In this document: positions 49,645 through 54,562 of the stretch, piece by piece
Layout of the letters: every line of letters begins with the position of its first letter
Numbering within the stretch: the stretch's first letter is position 1
Assembly: GCA_017416205.1 (NCBI GenBank)
Contig: JAFQDC010000107.1
Location: 11,345-75,344 of the forward strand
Direction: 5' to 3'
DNA: 64,000 bases
Origin: Clostridia bacterium
GTDB lineage: Bacteria > Bacillota > Clostridia > Oscillospirales > CAG-272
Position numbers and translations under genes: made by a program
Notes under the pieces: generated by a model
What the model saw: the letters and a program-made list of their open reading frames with translations, nothing else
The model's database searches: none
What the model was told of the DNA's origin: nothing

Positions 49645-49677
49645 CAATTATACAAAATTTCCATTTTGTATAATTGG
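49645..49677. repeat. perfect 14-bp inverted repeat (CAATTATACAAAAT ttcc ATTTTGTATAATTG) at the integration site
   Basis: Read directly from the sequence. The right arm is part of the att core. Each arm carries an extended -10-like TGTATAAT on one strand. Confidence 0.9.
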
Positions 49678-49683
49678 GTATAT
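49656..49683. repeat. attL core (28 nt)
   Basis: AATTTCCATTTTGTATAATTGGGTATAT. Matches 54535-54562 at 27 of 28 positions. Confidence 0.85.
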
Positions 49684-49731
49684 AGGTTCCTGGTGTCCTC
49701 CCCTTCCCTATGTGCCAGAAAGGAGAGAAGT

Positions 49732-49887
49732 ATGTCAAATATCAATACTATTGATGATTACATTGATGAAATAGTGTATTTCATAGAATTAAATGGATTA
49801 CCTGAAGAAGACTATGATTTGTCTAAAATGAGCTATGATGAAATTTTACAGTTGCATAAAGAATTTGTTGAAAACTTACCGTGTTGA
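49732..49887 (+). CDS. small acidic phage protein
   Basis: 51 aa from the ATG after AAAGGAGAG. The ORF-track version (49666) starts inside the att core. Confidence 0.4.
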   Translation: MSNINTIDDYIDEIVYFIELNGLPEEDYDLSKMSYDEILQLHKEFVENLPC

Positions 49888-49935
49888 TTTTCTTCATATT
49901 ACTTGATATATACTGACAGAATGTCATCATAAGGT

Positions 49936-50793
49936 ATGAACAATTTAGGAAATGAAAATGGCTATAATCCCAGTAATATCAAGGCTTCCGAGAGTTTTGT
50001 ATATTACCCGGTAAAGGCCAAATATGTTCATCTACCTTCAGGTGAGTTTAAATTACTTTCTGTCCAGGAATTTTCGGCGCCGTTATTTAGGAAGCCTGGT
50101 TACGAGGAGATAGTAAAAGATCGCTATATCGATGACTTCAGTGATACGCAGCTCACGATCGAGGAGAGAGAAACCGTTATGGACAACGTCTGCAGGGCTG
50201 TCCATCGTGCTAAGATCCAATGCTTCGATCTGATACAGTGTAATCCTGATCTTGATACGTTTGTTACTATCACTTTTAACAAAAACCGAGTTGACCGTAC
50301 ATCATATGATGATATCTATGATATTTTAAAGGTTTGGCTTAGTAACCGAGTTTCCCGGTGTGGATTATGTTATGTCCTGGTTCCTGAGTATCATCACGAC
50401 AAAGAATCCATTCATTTTCACGGATTATTTAATAGTGCTGCATTAAAGCTTGTAAAAGCTCGATCGCCTAAAACTGGCCGATTATTACATACAATGATTG
50501 GAAAACAGATCTATAACATCGAGGATTTTACTGCCGGCTTTACTACTGCTGTTATGATCGATGGTGAGAGCTGCGTTGATAAAGTATCTAAGTATATTTT
50601 TAAATATATGGGTAAGCAGCTCGGACAGAAGATTGGAGGACGTTATTACTTACATGGAGGTAAGTTAGCACTTCCCTATTTTATGTACGGCCAGGATCCT
50701 GCCGAGTTTGTTAACGGTGAGATCTGCACGTATGATACTGAGCCTGTTCAAGTACTTGACAATCTTACATTTAGACAATACTTTTATATTTGA
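49936..50793 (+). CDS. rolling-circle replication initiator (HUH endonuclease)
   Basis: 285 aa. Motif 1 FVTITF, HUH motif HFHGLF and two-tyrosine motif KYIFKYMGK. Confidence 0.8.
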   Translation: MNNLGNENGYNPSNIKASESFVYYPVKAKYVHLPSGEFKLLSVQEFSAPLFRKPGYEEIVKDRYIDDFSDTQLTIEERETVMDNVCRAVHRAKIQCFDLIQCNPDLDTFVTITFNKNRVDRTSYDDIYDILKVWLSNRVSRCGLCYVLVPEYHHDKESIHFHGLFNSAALKLVKARSPKTGRLLHTMIGKQIYNIEDFTAGFTTAVMIDGESCVDKVSKYIFKYMGKQLGQKIGGRYYLHGGKLALPYFMYGQDPAEFVNGEICTYDTEPVQVLDNLTFRQYFYI

Positions 50794-50800
50794 GGTAACT

Positions 50801-51106
50801 ATGGAAACTATTTTTTTATTTGATACTAACTTAATTAAAGCTAAAGACAACCGTGAATTTATTAAAACTCTTATGATTACAAACGATGATCAGGGTCACA
50901 TTCACGTTTATTCTTCCTTTGGAGCTGCCGAAGGAGCTCTACTTGGTATGATCTCAATACCTGACTTTAGAGATAATCTTGTTTTGAGAGATCTCACTTA
51001 CGTAGGCCGGTTCGGCAATCAGTCTCGTTACGTAGCCACTCTTGAATTTTTGGATGTCGACACAAACGTTCAGAGAGTGACTGTAGTATATACTCAAAAC
51101 TATTAA
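50801..51106 (+). CDS. phage protein, candidate ssDNA-binding protein (by position only)
   Basis: 101 aa from the ATG after TGAGGT. Lies between Rep and the coat-like gene, as gene V does in Ff phages. No motif support. Confidence 0.35.
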   Translation: METIFLFDTNLIKAKDNREFIKTLMITNDDQGHIHVYSSFGAAEGALLGMISIPDFRDNLVLRDLTYVGRFGNQSRYVATLEFLDVDTNVQRVTVVYTQNY

Positions 51107-51116
51107 GGAGGAAATT

Positions 51117-51305
51117 ATGGAAGGTACAAGTATTACTACTTTTATTGACACAGTCACAGCTCCTATGGAGGCAACTCTTACACTTACCAATCTTGGTAGT
51201 GTTATTGCAGCTGGTCTTACAATCTCAGTTGTATTTGTTCTCGGCTGGTTCGCTTTCCGCTGGATCTGGGGCAAGGTCAAGAAGGCTTTCCTTGGCGGTC
51301 GCTAA
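51117..51305 (+). CDS. candidate major coat protein
   Basis: 62 aa. Acidic/polar N-terminus, a hydrophobic segment of about 25 residues and a basic tail (GKVKKAFLGGR). Strong AGGAGG RBS and a strong terminator just after. Confidence 0.55.
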   Translation: MEGTSITTFIDTVTAPMEATLTLTNLGSVIAAGLTISVVFVLGWFAFRWIWGKVKKAFLGGR

Positions 51306-51313
51306 TTTCTCTG

Positions 51314-51339
51314 GGGAAGGGGTTATCCCCTTCCCTTTT
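51314..51339 (+). terminator. Rho-independent terminator after the coat-like gene
   Basis: GGGAAGGGG ttat CCCCTTCCC followed by TTTT. Confidence 0.8.
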
Positions 51340-51356
51340 GAATTAATGAGGTAATT

Positions 51357-52031
51357 ATGGATACAAGAGACGCTATCCGGCGTAAATTCGGTTTAAAAAA
51401 TATAAAGGCTGCAGCTAAGATCTTCTTCTCAAAGAAGGATCCTGATCTCTTCAGACCTTCAGGTATAGTTGTTTTCTCCGGAGCTCAGGGTTCCGGCAAG
51501 ACTCTTAACCTTATTTCTACGTTAAATGATATTAAGCTGCGTTATCCAAAGTGTAAGATCTTCTCTAATATAAAGCTCAAAGATATTGAGTACTTCCCTT
51601 TTACTGGCCCTGAGTGCTTCTCTGATGAAGAGTCTAATGGTAAATACGGTACCGTCTACGTTATCGATGAGATACATACACTTTGGTCAAGTCTGGATAG
51701 TAAGAATATGTCCGGAGATCTTCTTACTATCTGGTCTCAAAACAGAAAGAATATTCGTTTGATCCTGGCAACGTCACAACGTTGGAGCCGTGTAGCTAAG
51801 CCCATCAGAGAACAGGCTACTTACGTAGTTGAGTGTAAACGGCCTATTGGACGTATTTTCTTTAGATACCGTGTTATTGATGCTTCATATTATGACGATA
51901 ACGGTAACCTGGTATTTGCCTCTGAGGAACAGAAGGATGTTATATCCAGGTATTCCTTTTATATTCCTTCTCTTAAGGTTCTTAACATGTATGACACTAT
52001 GGAAATCGTAAAAAAGGAGAAAAAGAAGTGA
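51357..52031 (+). CDS. Zot/pI-like morphogenesis P-loop ATPase
   Basis: 224 aa. Walker A GAQGSGKT, Walker B VYVIDEIH and QNRKNIRLILATSQ (compare the Zot HRH.G.D....TQ block). Contains no TM segment itself. Confidence 0.7.
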   Translation: MDTRDAIRRKFGLKNIKAAAKIFFSKKDPDLFRPSGIVVFSGAQGSGKTLNLISTLNDIKLRYPKCKIFSNIKLKDIEYFPFTGPECFSDEESNGKYGTVYVIDEIHTLWSSLDSKNMSGDLLTIWSQNRKNIRLILATSQRWSRVAKPIREQATYVVECKRPIGRIFFRYRVIDASYYDDNGNLVFASEEQKDVISRYSFYIPSLKVLNMYDTMEIVKKEKKK

Positions 52032-53762: not shown

Positions 53763-53763
53763 T

Positions 53764-54045
53764 ATGGTTAGTTTGATTAAAAGTGCAGCACATGTAACTT
53801 TTTTAGCAGCTACTTACATAGCTATAATGATTTATCTTACAAATGGTTTGTATGATGTATTTGATATGCTTGGTGGTACGTTTGGCACCATTCCTCAGTT
53901 AGTAGTTAACATTATTGGTTGTGTAATAAGTACGTTGAATTGGATCTTTAGTCCCGTTGCTGTAAAGTTTGCTATGGCTGTTTGGTGGGTATGGCCTGAA
54001 GTAAAGCTTGGAATCTACGTATCCCATAAGATTCACCACGTGTAA
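53764..54045 (+). CDS. polytopic small membrane phage protein (candidate pVI-like)
   Basis: 93 aa with about three TM helices. Its start lies 1 nt after the previous stop. Confidence 0.45.
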   Translation: MVSLIKSAAHVTFLAATYIAIMIYLTNGLYDVFDMLGGTFGTIPQLVVNIIGCVISTLNWIFSPVAVKFAMAVWWVWPEVKLGIYVSHKIHHV

Positions 54046-54208
54046 GCTTCAGTTCTTTTCTCTTAGCTAAAACTGAAATACCGTGTTAACTCTCCCCGAC
54101 GGTATCAGGAACGGGCGCCAGGATCCTAATGACCAGCACAAACTTTACGCGCCGGTGCGGAGCATGCAAACTCCCCCCGACAAAGTAAAGGTCACCCTTC
54201 TTAACCAC

Positions 54209-54239
54209 TTCCCTCCCCTGATAGGGAGGGAAGTTTTTT
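54209..54239 (+). terminator. Rho-independent terminator ending the phage plus-strand operon
   Basis: CTTCCCTCCC ctgata GGGAGGGAAG followed by TTTTTT. Confidence 0.8.
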
Positions 54240-54240
54240 A

Positions 54241-54453
54241 CTAACGGTCTGATCTACCTAACAGATAGTCAGTGCTGCAGTCGAGCTCGTCTGCGAGTTT
54301 GTATAACGTAGCTGCAGCAATTCCCTTCTTACCGGTAAGCTGCGTGAAGGTGTTTCTGTTGATCTCGCAGGCTGTACAGAGATCTCCAATTTTCATTCCT
54401 TTTTCTGCAGCTCTCTCTCTGATCCTGGTTACTAATGTTTCGTTACTATACAT
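54241..54453 (-). CDS. XRE-family HTH transcriptional repressor
   Basis: 70 aa from the ATG after GAAGGAGG. HTH region MKIGDLCTACEINRNTFTQLTGKK. Divergent from the structural genes. Confidence 0.8.
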   Translation of the reverse strand: MYSNETLVTRIRERAAEKGMKIGDLCTACEINRNTFTQLTGKKGIAAATLYKLADELDCSTDYLLGRSDR

Positions 54454-54466
54454 TTTTGCCTCCTTC

Positions 54467-54484
54467 TGCAAGAAACTTCTTGCA
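54467..54484. promoter_or_regulatory. operator O1 (palindrome TGCAAGAA ac TTCTTGCA)
   Basis: Perfect 8+8 inverted repeat just upstream of the repressor RBS. Overlaps the -35 of the plus-strand promoter. Confidence 0.65.
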
Positions 54485-54508
54485 ACTGACTGAAATTTGT
54501 GTTATATT
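54480..54508 (+). promoter_or_regulatory. plus-strand promoter with extended -10
   Basis: TTGCAA, 17 nt, TATATT, with TGT immediately 5' of the -10. Faces attR. Confidence 0.55.
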
Positions 54509-54513
54509 GGTTA

Positions 54514-54531
54514 TGCAAGAAATATCTTGCA
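54514..54531. promoter_or_regulatory. operator O2 (palindrome TGCAAGA aata TCTTGCA)
   Basis: Same 18-nt frame as O1, identical at 16 of 18 positions. Starts 6 nt downstream of the -10. Confidence 0.65.
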
Positions 54532-54534
54532 CGT

Positions 54535-54562
54535 AATTTCCATTTTGTATAATTGAGTATAT
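54535..54562. repeat. attR core (28 nt)
   Basis: AATTTCCATTTTGTATAATTGAGTATAT. Differs from attL only at position 22 (A versus G). Confidence 0.85.

Follow-up and report, generated by a model that had tools for sequence, protein, structure and literature searches.

A small inovirus-type prophage of a rumen Clostridia bacterium at a palindromic, dif-like attachment site

Introduction

Inoviruses of Gram-positive bacteria are no longer a curiosity. Thousands of inoviruses have been predicted and several candidate families assigned to monoderm hosts (Roux et al. 2019, PMC6813254), which makes outdated the view of an earlier note on the present DNA that hardly any phages of this sort have been characterised from Gram-positive hosts. 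For the inoviruses of Enterocloster, secretion has been shown, in a paper that mentions neither an integrase or recombinase nor Xer (PMC10061712). Small inoviruses of the type described here are already known from gut viromes.

Integrase-less filamentous phages include the IMEX phages of Proteobacteria (CTXphi, VGJphi and TLCphi of Vibrio; Cf/Lf of Xanthomonas). Their attP imitates a portion of the host dif, and the Xer recombinases of the host integrate them near the terminus. In the single-recombinase systems XerS/difSL and XerH/difH, the position of dif beside its own xer gene is a possible hallmark (PMC5357621), and canonical dif prediction failed or was dubious in several Clostridium genomes (PMC3025954). 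The locus analysed here adds an integrase-less inovirus whose insertion site is dif-like, palindromic and conserved, and is used by related phages as well.

The integrated element and its host

The window, i.e., the whole 64,000-nt stretch of DNA analysed, comes from an uncultured rumen Clostridia (Oscillospirales-like) spore-former. It carries spoIVA at 14101-15672 (TIGR02836, 614 bits; cut-off 460) together with a gene of the GerA family, and the nearest relatives of the host are Oscillospiraceae or unclassified Clostridia MAGs.

Between coaX (Pan_kinase) and galM (Aldose_epim) lies a block that is, judging from its sequence, an integrated 4.9-kb filamentous (inovirus-type) phage (Table 1). 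The earlier note had reported an AT-rich unit of 4,879 bp between two repeats, and the measurements agree: the two copies of the repeat, AATTTCCATTTTGTATAATTG[G/A]GTATAT, differ by one mismatch and are 4879 nt apart, and the GC content of 37.8% is lower than in any host segment of equal length (mean 42.6%, sd 1.4, minimum 38.6). The layout of the ORFs also stood, with the correction that the same-strand ORFs number 11 (51, 285, 101, 62, 224, 47, 34, 36, 139, 339 and 93 aa) rather than 12, plus the divergent HTH gene. Its reading as an inovirus-type prophage is strengthened by the Rep and Zot matches above Pfam cut-offs, the circular and attP-junction contigs and the helical 62-aa protein. As had been claimed, no capsid, terminase, lysis or integrase gene was found among the ORFs of the block, and profile searches of the element likewise detected no integrase. 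Some gene callers miss the 36-aa ORF on public contigs.

Table 1. Features of the integrated element (window coordinates)
Feature	Position	Strand	Remarks
Complete 12-6-12 palindrome, attL	49646..49675	.	AATTATACAAAA-TTTCCA-TTTTGTATAATT
Direct repeat, left copy (att core), 28 nt	49656..49683	+	G at position 22, like circular attP
51-aa acidic ORF (13 D+E, 2 K+R)	49732..49887	+	Opens rightward operon
Rep, HUH rolling-circle replication initiator, 285 aa	49936..50793	+	PF23343 REP_ORF2-G2P, 36.8 bits (cut-off 27.8)
101-aa protein, Ff gene V position	50801..51106	+	Predicted all-beta
Putative major coat protein, 62 aa	51117..51305	+	Acidic N-terminus, TM core at about residues 21-50, basic C-terminus
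Terminator-like hairpin, 3' of 62-aa gene	51313..51336	+	
Zot/pI-like morphogenesis ATPase, 224 aa	51357..52031	+	PF05707 Zot, 38.5 bits (cut-off 20.3)
Three overlapping micro-ORFs, 47/34/36 aa	52028..52371	+	One predicted TM helix each
139-aa Tyr/Thr-rich protein, C-terminal TM anchor	52372..52791	+	Putative minor virion protein
339-aa protein, N-terminal signal-like segment, C-terminal TM anchor	52743..53762	+	Putative adsorption (pIII-like) protein
93-aa polytopic membrane protein	53764..54045	+	
Non-coding G+C-rich intergenic region, 195 nt	54046..54240	+	DNA fold z = -2.5
Cro/CI-type HTH repressor, 70 aa from ATG (76 aa from upstream TTG)	54241..54453	-	PF13443 HTH_26, 38.3 bits (cut-off 22)
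Putative immunity control region	54467..54531	+	Two 18-bp palindromic operators around promoter
Direct repeat, right copy (attR core), 28 nt	54535..54562	+	A at position 22, from attB

The attachment site

The absence of an integrase can be explained by the dif-like nature of the attachment site, which the earlier note had not noticed. Joining the host flanks reconstructs an attB that is a perfect 12-6-12 palindrome, AATTATACAAAA-TTTCCA-TTTTGTATAATT. In attL, the left arm is host-derived, while the central region and right arm are common to the phage, which would contribute only an attP made of a degenerate arm, the 6-bp centre TTTCCA and the perfect arm TTTTGTATAATT. The G/A mismatch at position 22 of the repeat places the crossover to the left of that position, and strand exchange would fall inside repeat positions 1-21. 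The 14-nt arm is confined to the att sites in the 64-kb window, against a chance expectation of 0.07 matches. Each arm contains TATAAT, so part of the arm conservation may reflect promoter function.

Palindromes of this type are occupied by inoviruses in six other sequences (L069, L070, L080, L103, L110 and L111) and empty in seven (L104-L109 and L063). When two arms with a spacer of 0 to 14 were sought in IMG/VR, the spacer was exactly 6 in 20 of the 31 matches; the central regions of these palindromes differ, and three of the 20 have a xer gene within the fetched stretch. In other genomes, the palindrome lies in the promoter of a conserved host gene for a Xer-family recombinase. In one species it is located 15 nt upstream of the ATG of this gene, and the site is, depending on the sample, empty or filled by one of two different inoviruses. 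The recombinase (328-336 aa) is very widespread, highly conserved and chromosomal; it scores best against the XerC, XerD and XerA models rather than XerS, and stays under the NCBIfam equivalog cut-offs for all four.

The integration mechanism

No tyrosine recombinase gene was found in the 84 kb of scaffold examined, nor adjoining the coaX-side site. Along this scaffold, the cumulative GC skew has its peak at about 42 kb of the window, and the two gene orientations meet at 42.78 kb, in convergence. With the att site at 49.65 kb, the distance to the skew switch is about 7 kb. The skew peak is at most 1.5 kb from the site in L069 and L104, for each of which only 12-19 kb of sequence is available.

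The palindrome is probably the dif site of the host lineage. These data are best read as IMEX-type integration at a dif-like site, in which the phage would exploit the Xer machinery of its host: attP and the chromosomal 12-6-12 palindrome would be recombined by a host tyrosine recombinase of the Xer family, probably a single enzyme, whose gene would lie elsewhere in the genome. The explanation as a whole, a temperate inovirus-type ssDNA phage with a 4,864-nt circle that integrates in the terminus region by this route, is considered likely.

It is rather unlikely that the same phage uses a dedicated attachment site distinct from the chromosomal dif, recognized by a tyrosine recombinase of the host or of another element without a role in dimer resolution, with the xer-like gene and its site forming a landing-pad module. 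Such a module would fit the window site, which adjoins coaX with no recombinase gene beside it, the sub-cut-off scores of the recombinase, and the IMG/VR palindromes, most of which lack xer in the fetched stretch and whose central regions vary. However, the site is near the positive-to-negative GC-skew switch in three unrelated genomes and the recombinase family has the spread, conservation and chromosomal location noted above; the possible hallmark of XerS/difSL and XerH/difH (PMC5357621) and the dubious dif predictions in Clostridium (PMC3025954) also argue for a true dif.

Still further down in probability, and very improbable, is integration by the HUH Rep of the phage, which would treat the att core as a pseudo-origin and nick it, the palindrome being extruded in hairpin form, and would link phage and chromosomal DNA. 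HUH enzymes are capable of strand transfer, an integrase is absent and attB is a perfect palindrome able to form a hairpin. However, phages with three unrelated Rep families (REP_ORF2-G2P, Rep_OBD and Viral_Rep) are found at the same type of palindrome, which argues that Rep is not the integrase. Moreover, the variant L111, with a swapped Rep, occupies the identical coaX|galM site with the same core, and tyrosine-recombinase core sites have just such a 12-6-12 geometry, with the crossover falling in the 6-bp centre or close to it.

Replication, assembly and virion genes

In L111, the 51-aa ORF and Rep are swapped as one unit. The earlier description of a rolling-circle Rep with three motifs (FVTITF, HFHGLF and KYIFKYMGK) was confirmed, all three being present in a protein with an inovirus/plectrovirus-type profile match; its tblastn matches are restricted to bajarodino and Dulem viruses. 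The OB fold and gene V role suggested for the 101-aa protein found no support, since its low-confidence all-beta model has no structural match; similarity to ssDNA-binding proteins or the gene V protein was not detected either.

The assignment of the ATPase to the Zot/pI type was upheld by a Pfam Zot score above the gathering threshold and by tblastn matches confined to Zot/ATPase genes of bajarodino viruses and records deposited as Inovirus sp. The protein has Walker A (GAQGSGKT) and Walker B (VYVIDEIH) motifs, and no TM segment is predicted within it. In GenBank it is labelled only as 'AAA family ATPase'. The micro-ORFs may encode membrane partners of the ATPase or, alternatively, minor proteins of the virion.

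The gene of the putative coat protein has a strong RBS (AAGGAGG). Its product had been expected to form one long helix with a TM core and its gene to be followed by a terminator; the structure prediction agrees, with a single helix over residues 4-59 (pLDDT 82.8), and the hairpin was located. Profile searches returned no family match for the 139-aa and 339-aa proteins. A bidirectional terminator (54207-54234) closes the 195-nt intergenic region after the last structural gene; this region is a candidate packaging or origin region.

The repressor and the immunity region

The predicted operators (54467-54484, TGCAAGAAACTTCTTGCA; 54514-54531, TGCAAGAAATATCTTGCA) enclose a predicted rightward promoter, TTGCAA-17-TATATT (54480-54508). 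In variant circles the operators are exchanged jointly with the repressor, of which a heteroimmune allele has 51% identity. Similarly, immunity types in CTXphi are set by swapped repressor/operator cassettes (rstR). Since attP falls downstream of the operator-controlled promoter but ahead of the first gene, integration parts the two, leaving this promoter at the right end and the Rep/structural operon at the left.

The following cycle is proposed. The repressor would hold the rightward operon off and, upon induction, Rep would carry out rolling-circle copying of the genome. The ssDNA would be pushed out through the membrane by the ATPase with its small TM partners, and the 62-aa protein would coat it during exit, without lysis of the cell.

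Circular forms and variants

The circular junction anticipated in the earlier note is found in metagenomes. Contigs L005 and L006 (5005 bp, 141-nt terminal overlap) and L007 (4919 bp, 55-nt overlap) correspond to 4,864-bp circles, and in L010 position 54562 is joined to 49684 via a single core, the exact attP junction. These contigs come from several rumen samples, and, the swapped immunity region apart, the circular contigs of other samples match the window at 99.9-100% identity. With such copies in several metagenomes, the phage is apparently active, although the attP junction could instead reflect tandem prophage copies.

Heteroimmune and Rep-swapped variants are also in circulation. No insert-free copy of the locus, i.e., an empty attB of this host, was found among the relatives searched. 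In the nearest species coaX and galM are not adjacent, and a strain with 95% identity harbours a variant phage at this locus, which points to a mobile insert.

A reading of the block as an element that has ceased to form particles, either a prophage remnant in decay or domesticated or a non-viral integrative plasmid of the rolling-circle type, is highly doubtful: the phage is known here as sequence, its integration uncouples promoter and structural operon and its ATPase has only a generic GenBank label, but every ORF is intact, near-identical circles and both kinds of variants circulate, and a Zot ATPase, a coat-like helix and anchored secreted proteins would have no role in a plasmid.

Comparison with known systems

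The present phage shares with the Ff phages (M13/fd/f1) the module order (Rep, small protein, coat and terminator, minor proteins and assembly ATPase) and, by prediction, rolling-circle replication and a helical coat protein. Unlike them, it is temperate, with a repressor, and has no secretin (pIV) and no detected similarity to the gene V protein; the TM and periplasmic half of pI has no counterpart in its ATPase, whose gene is followed by separate small TM ORFs.

The inoviruses of Enterocloster/Hungatella (PMC10061712) and the monoderm families of Roux et al. (PMC6813254) are likewise repeat-flanked prophages of gut Clostridia with a pI-like ATPase and no secretin; their genomes, likened here by description, are 6.5-8.5 kb or larger, against 4.86 kb. 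Searches of phage collections and IMG/VR returned no close relative. The closest kin are inoviruses of faecal viromes (bajarodino, porcine 'Inovirus sp.' MT1352xx/MT1353xx and Dulem), small circles of 4.2-8.8 kb with 34-48% identity in Zot and 27-39% in Rep, and no similarity at the DNA level. Bajarodino virus 66 (PQ006102.1, 4,481 bp, circular) has 48% identity in Zot, shares the gene order, including the divergent repressor, and carries the AATTATACAAAA half-site followed by a degenerate arm. While these are free virome genomes, the host, both junctions and attP are all seen for the present phage, whose attP lies between promoter and first gene rather than after the last structural gene.

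As proposed for the present phage, the IMEX phages rely on the host Xer; tandem arrays occur among them, and L103 shows a duplicated Rep. Here, in contrast, the host is monoderm, the target is a perfect 12-6-12 palindrome instead of an asymmetric XerC/XerD dif, and the recombinase, in an integration deduced from sequence, is probably a single Xer-like enzyme.

Finally, the XerS/difSL system of streptococci and lactococci and the XerH/difH system of Helicobacter and Campylobacter (PMC5357621) differ in that no xer gene is adjacent in the window and, for difSL (31 bp, 11-bp centre), in that the arms here are perfectly symmetric around a 6-bp centre. In the relatives L104, L080 and L119, however, the site likewise directly precedes a Xer-family gene, with which it makes up a single module near a GC-skew switch.

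Boundaries and Gene Content of the Element

The element lies between coaX and galM and is bounded by two copies of a direct repeat. The 14-nt arm ATTTTGTATAATTG is confined to both junctions within the 64-kb window, against a chance expectation of 0.07 matches. The GC content of the element (37.8%) is below that of all equal-size host windows (mean 42.6%, sd 1.4, minimum 38.6). There are 11 abutting or overlapping same-strand ORFs (51, 285, 101, 62, 224, 47, 34, 36, 139, 339 and 93 aa), where the earlier note had counted 12, besides one divergent HTH gene; the 36-aa ORF is missing from some public gene calls. 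Among the host genes are spoIVA and one of the GerA family. The closest GalM relatives of the host come from Oscillospiraceae or unclassified Clostridia MAGs of animal guts, and the same scaffold originates from a rumen metagenome. An Rfam search of the window gave no match.

Proteins and sequence features of the element, its surroundings and the compared loci (window positions unless a locus is named)
Feature	Position	Size	Evidence or content
Direct repeat	49656-49683; 54535-54562	28 nt	AATTTCCATTTTGTATAATTG[G/A]GTATAT; spacing 4879 nt
Rep		285 aa	PF23343 REP_ORF2-G2P, 36.8 bits vs cut-off 27.8; HUH and Y motifs read from the sequence
101-aa protein		101 aa	13 close homologues only
62-aa protein		62 aa	Acidic head and basic tail around a TM-like core (residues 21-50); 3 acidic and 5 basic residues
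ATPase		224 aa	PF05707 Zot, 38.5 bits vs gathering score 20.3; PHROG 197 'Zot-like toxin', 2.9e-07
Three further proteins and three micro-ORFs		139, 339, 93 aa	Predicted membrane-anchored; no family match
Repressor (divergent)			HTH_26, 38.3 bits vs 22
Palindromic operators	54467-54484; 54514-54531	18 bp each	Bracket the rightward promoter TTGCAA-17-TATATT
Exchanged cassette	54301-54534		Repressor N-terminal part and both operators
Slippery heptamer	52005-52035		dnaX-type A_AAA_AAG, 15 nt ahead of the Zot stop codon
Paired arms	48774-48804		Two direct copies of TTTTGTATAAT, 20 nt apart
SD-like sequence and ORF	49594-49645 (minus strand)	17 codons	GAGGGAAGGG-TTA-ATG, then an ORF out of the coaX frame
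GC-skew switch	~40000-44000		Positive to negative
Gene orientation convergence	42770/42789		42.78 kb
L118 site	1170-1210 (L118)		TTTTATACATAA-TGAATA-TTTTGTATAATT
L111 second element	12746-17060 (L111)	~4 kb	In tandem, between phage and galM
L111 additional arms	16956; 17031 (L111)		TTTTGTATAATT with differing centres
L103 duplication	514-1760; 7703-8949 (L103)		Viral_Rep gene and next 79-aa ORF

The Rep and the Zot-type ATPase recognized earlier from the sequence both score above their Pfam cut-offs. The four proteins compared with NCBIfam (Rep, 101-aa, Zot and 339-aa) all went unmatched, and no significant hit came from searching PDB sequences with Zot and Rep. The 62-aa protein matched no family in Pfam or PHROG. 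Its AF2 model is one helix covering residues 4-59 (pLDDT 82.8, the single-sequence run being only a moderate test), as the earlier note had anticipated, and Foldseek with this helix found no match, as expected for a single helix. As modelled, the protein resembles a small alpha-helical major coat protein and is considered the putative coat protein. The 101-aa protein, without a match in Pfam, PHROG or NCBIfam, is modelled at low confidence (pLDDT 62) as an all-beta fold with six strands; the best Foldseek hit against the PDB had an E of 0.066 and a TM of at most 0.37, with no significant gene V or SSB match, and its gene V-like label derives from gene position alone.

Capsid, portal, terminase, tail and lysis families are unmatched among the ORFs, apart from weak AAA-type cross-matches of the ATPase, and no recombinase, integrase or transposase family was found among the 12 ORFs in Pfam, PHROG or NCBIfam. 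A terminator-like hairpin lies downstream of the coat gene and another downstream of the last structural gene. The ATPase itself is devoid of TM segments; its stop codon is overlapped by a separate TM ORF of 47 aa, an arrangement also found in relatives. A -1 shift at the slippery heptamer would join the two into a pI-like membrane-anchored form. The heptamer is kept in L111, a strain carrying a variant phage, and gives way to a plain start/stop overlap in remoter relatives. The frameshift fusion is possible in the element and L111; because the heptamer is unconserved farther out, ordinary translational coupling is the simpler reading.

Circular Form and Phage Variants

An exact look-up of the Zot protein returned 17 contigs. 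Three contigs, L005 and L006 (5005 bp, ends overlapping by 141 nt) and L007 (4919 bp, ends overlapping by 55 nt), are permuted copies of one circular 4,864-bp genome, and in contig L010 window position 54562 is joined to 49684 via a single core copy. The attP junction that the earlier note had proposed to look for is present in L010 as well as in the circular contigs, with the caveat that such a junction can also be obtained from a tandem prophage array. Core position 22 is G in attP and attL and A in attR; therefore, the crossover falls within repeat positions 1-21. The reading of the element as an inovirus-type filamentous prophage (Tubulavirales) is supported by its gene content, its site-specific junctions and its circular/attP form, and the same site is reused by other phages.

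Outside one segment, the window matches the circles and the junction contig L008 at 99.9-100% identity. In that segment the N-terminal part of the repressor and both operators have been swapped as a single cassette. The swapped repressor shares 51% protein identity, with its 17 C-terminal residues identical. By this exchange L005-L008 are a heteroimmune variant, a switch of immunity that recalls the rstR types of CTXphi.

A second kind of variation is found in L111 (JGI Ga0307249_10018750), a strain with 95%-identical flanks and a variant phage at the same coaX/galM site, in which a Rep_OBD module takes the place of the 51-aa ORF and Rep. L111 also holds a second element, which codes for a Phage_integrase-family protein (199 aa) and for a Rep of the REP_ORF2-G2P family with 50% identity to the window Rep. 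Additional arms of the attachment site are present in L111 as well.

A Palindromic Attachment Site Shared by Different Phages

Joining the host flanks yields a perfect palindrome as attB, AATTATACAAAA-TTTCCA-TTTTGTATAATT-GAGTATAT; the predicted empty attB of the window host is CCCTCAATTATACAAAATTTCCATTTTGTATAATTGAGTATATGGAG. This 12-6-12 palindrome has the geometry of a tyrosine-recombinase core site. The phage attP, cttgcacgtAA-TTTCCA-TTTTGTATAATT-GGGTATAT, keeps the centre and right arm intact, with a degenerate left arm. By sequence, attP mimics the host site through its centre and one arm, as is characteristic of an IMEX (integrative mobile element exploiting Xer). Integration leaves the arm next to coaX unaltered, together with the 28 nt upstream of that arm.

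The same attP logic is found in five other loci (L069, L070, L080, L103 and L110). Two prophages located through their Zot homologues are bounded by AACTATACAAAA-TGAATA-TTTTGTATAGTT (L069) and AATTATACAAAA-TATTCA-TTTTGTATAATT (L070), the repeat consisting in both of the 6-bp centre plus one arm, and L080 is a 6.9-kb inovirus bounded by the same type of site. The exact 21-nt core has four matches in JGI metagenomes. One of them (L063) is a genuine unoccupied palindrome, which bears the window's own centre in a different context; the other three are chance matches, two being one sequence. The core is absent from IMG/VR, where two-arm matches with spacers of 0 to 14 allowed had a spacer of exactly 6 in 20 of 31 cases. 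An empty attB was sought in GTDB representative genomes via GalM and none was found, the best relative being 87% identical; in this set coaX adjoins galM in no relative above 63% GalM identity.

Several further observations concern the occurrence of the palindrome. Of the 20 IMG/VR stretches with a perfect 12-6-12 palindrome (L072-L091), 17 (15 distinct sequences) have differing centres; none of the 17 has a xer gene in the stretch fetched, and most are on 15-56-kb viral contigs. These palindromes may be host dif sites at prophage borders or phage-borne sites. L118, a circular Microviridae sp. genome from elk faeces (MG945286.1), carries between VP4 and a peptidase-like gene a degenerate arm, the centre of L069 and a perfect arm. 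This corresponds to the attP logic of the inoviruses and suggests that microviruses target this site too. In the window, paired arms between coaX and an ECF-transporter gene are retained in L111; isolated half-sites may be mere promoter elements because the arm contains TATAAT.

A Xer-Family Gene beside the Site

In many gut Clostridia the palindrome occupies the promoter of a conserved Xer-family gene encoding 328-336 aa. The gene adjoins the site in L104-L110, L080, L119, L069, L070, L073 and L077 (328-336 aa in the last six), at distances from 15-16 nt (L104, L080) up to ~0.7 kb (L069, L070), and lies outside both repeats wherever both are visible. Its NCBIfam best matches are XerC, XerD and XerA, all under the equivalog cut-offs, and the family is very large, highly conserved and located on long chromosomal contigs.

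The most informative case is one identical recombinase, P0139. At six places that encode it (L104-L109) the site is empty and lies 15 nt ahead of the xer start codon (ATG), and at two further places two different inoviruses are inserted exactly there (L110, with a REP_ORF2-G2P Rep, and L103, with Viral_Rep). Since empty and differently occupied sites lie beside the same gene, the recombinase is a host gene and the palindrome in its promoter an inovirus hot spot. In L103 a Rep gene and the next ORF are duplicated at both ends, which suggests a tandem or partial tandem array of the kind known for CTXphi/RS1.

Integration by Rep was considered and rejected, because elements with three unrelated Rep families share one site. 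In the window host, no tyrosine recombinase gene was found in 84 kb of scaffold, tblastn with Xer-like proteins against the window gave nothing, and the linkage of site and xer is absent there. Adjoining the palindrome of the window, an SD-like GAGGGAAGGG and ATG resemble the SD and start codon that xer has at the corresponding place in L104 and L080, and may be what is left of a xer gene that was lost or moved elsewhere.

Proposed Life Cycle

The repressor would control the rightward operon through the two operators, Rep would carry out rolling-circle replication, and the Zot ATPase with small TM partners would extrude the coat-covered ssDNA, with neither lysis nor a secretin. A Xer-family recombinase of the host could perform both integration and excision, with attP and the dif-like palindrome as its substrates, as the association of site and gene suggests. 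The operator-controlled promoter and the 51-aa ORF lie on opposite sides of attP; therefore, in the prophage this promoter points out to galM, and the Rep/structural operon is severed from it.

Relatives of the Phage

Searches by tblastn with Zot and with Rep matched only small circular faecal-virome genomes, namely bajarodino viruses, Dulem viruses and porcine records deposited as "Inovirus sp."; the two records inspected are classified as Inoviridae. In bajarodino virus 66 (4,481 bp) Zot is 48% identical and the genes, the divergent repressor among them, follow the same order; the name "Bajarodino" was not met in the literature searched. Zot relatives in the protein database number 136, most of them on contigs of 4.1-5.7 kb. 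A whole-element DNA search against 50,697 phage records gave no match, and a Zot protein search of IMG/VR no confirmed relative. Public MAG records list the element's genes as "AAA family ATPase" or hypothetical, the GenBank name of the ATPase being only "AAA family ATPase [Clostridia bacterium]".

Thousands of inoviruses have been predicted, with monoderm hosts given for several candidate families (Roux et al. 2019, PMC6813254), and secretion has been demonstrated for Enterocloster inoviruses (PMC10061712). Given its matches to faecal inoviruses, the phage belongs to an already known type and is ordinary for its recently recognized class. It is a well-resolved addition to a large, almost uncharacterized clade of 4-6-kb gut inoviruses, in which the host, both junctions, attP, circular form, immunity variants and a Rep-module swap are visible for one phage. 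A 46% identical Zot relative occurs in a Hadza gut MAG (L067/L068, 422-kb contig), in an inovirus with a Rep_trans-family Rep and flanking direct repeats of at least 85 nt. No such palindrome is present there, which points to a different integration route inside the same Zot clade.

The Site as a Candidate dif

The part worth pursuing, and more useful than the phage itself, is the shared palindromic attachment site, linked to xer in relatives and near the probable terminus. The host scaffold was extended to 84 kb for skew analysis, and its cumulative GC skew rises to about window position 42 kb and then falls. The att site, at 49.65 kb, falls inside a switch region of the terminus type, ~7 kb from the skew switch, near which gene orientations converge. 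The window probably includes the part of the host chromosome in which replication terminates. In L069 with its prophage removed and in the empty L104, the skew peak is at most 1.5 kb from the site, over only 12-19 kb of sequence. Counts of FtsK/SpoIIIE-orienting motifs (GAGAAGGG, GAAGAAG and GGGNAGGG) near the site are too low to inform. In C. perfringens and C. beijerinckii, prediction of a canonical dif was unsuccessful, and in C. botulinum it placed the site ~175 degrees from the skew shift (PMC3025954).

The palindrome AAYTATACAAAA-N6-TTTTGTATARTT and the Xer-family gene may constitute an undescribed single-recombinase dif/Xer system of Oscillospirales-type Clostridia and a shared hot spot for ssDNA phages, a tentative proposal that we judge slightly more likely wrong than right. 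If true, dif/Xer would serve as an integration hot spot for small ssDNA phages from two or more realms-level lineages, namely inoviruses with three different Rep families and, among the Microviridae, at least MG945286.1 with the same kind of attP. The window prophage would then sit in the host dif, now separated from xer. No paper on Xer/IMEX use by inoviruses of Clostridia or Firmicutes was found in the literature searched.

The att site offers a simple sequence rule to find and delimit integrase-less ssDNA prophages in gut Clostridia, and points to a candidate dif/Xer module where canonical dif prediction is unreliable. A single purified recombinase and a site of 30 bp would allow this module to be tested directly. 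For XerS/difSL and XerH/difH, both single-recombinase systems, the linkage of dif to xer has been described as a potential hallmark (PMC5357621). The window host differs from these systems in this respect; in relatives the site does lie beside xer.
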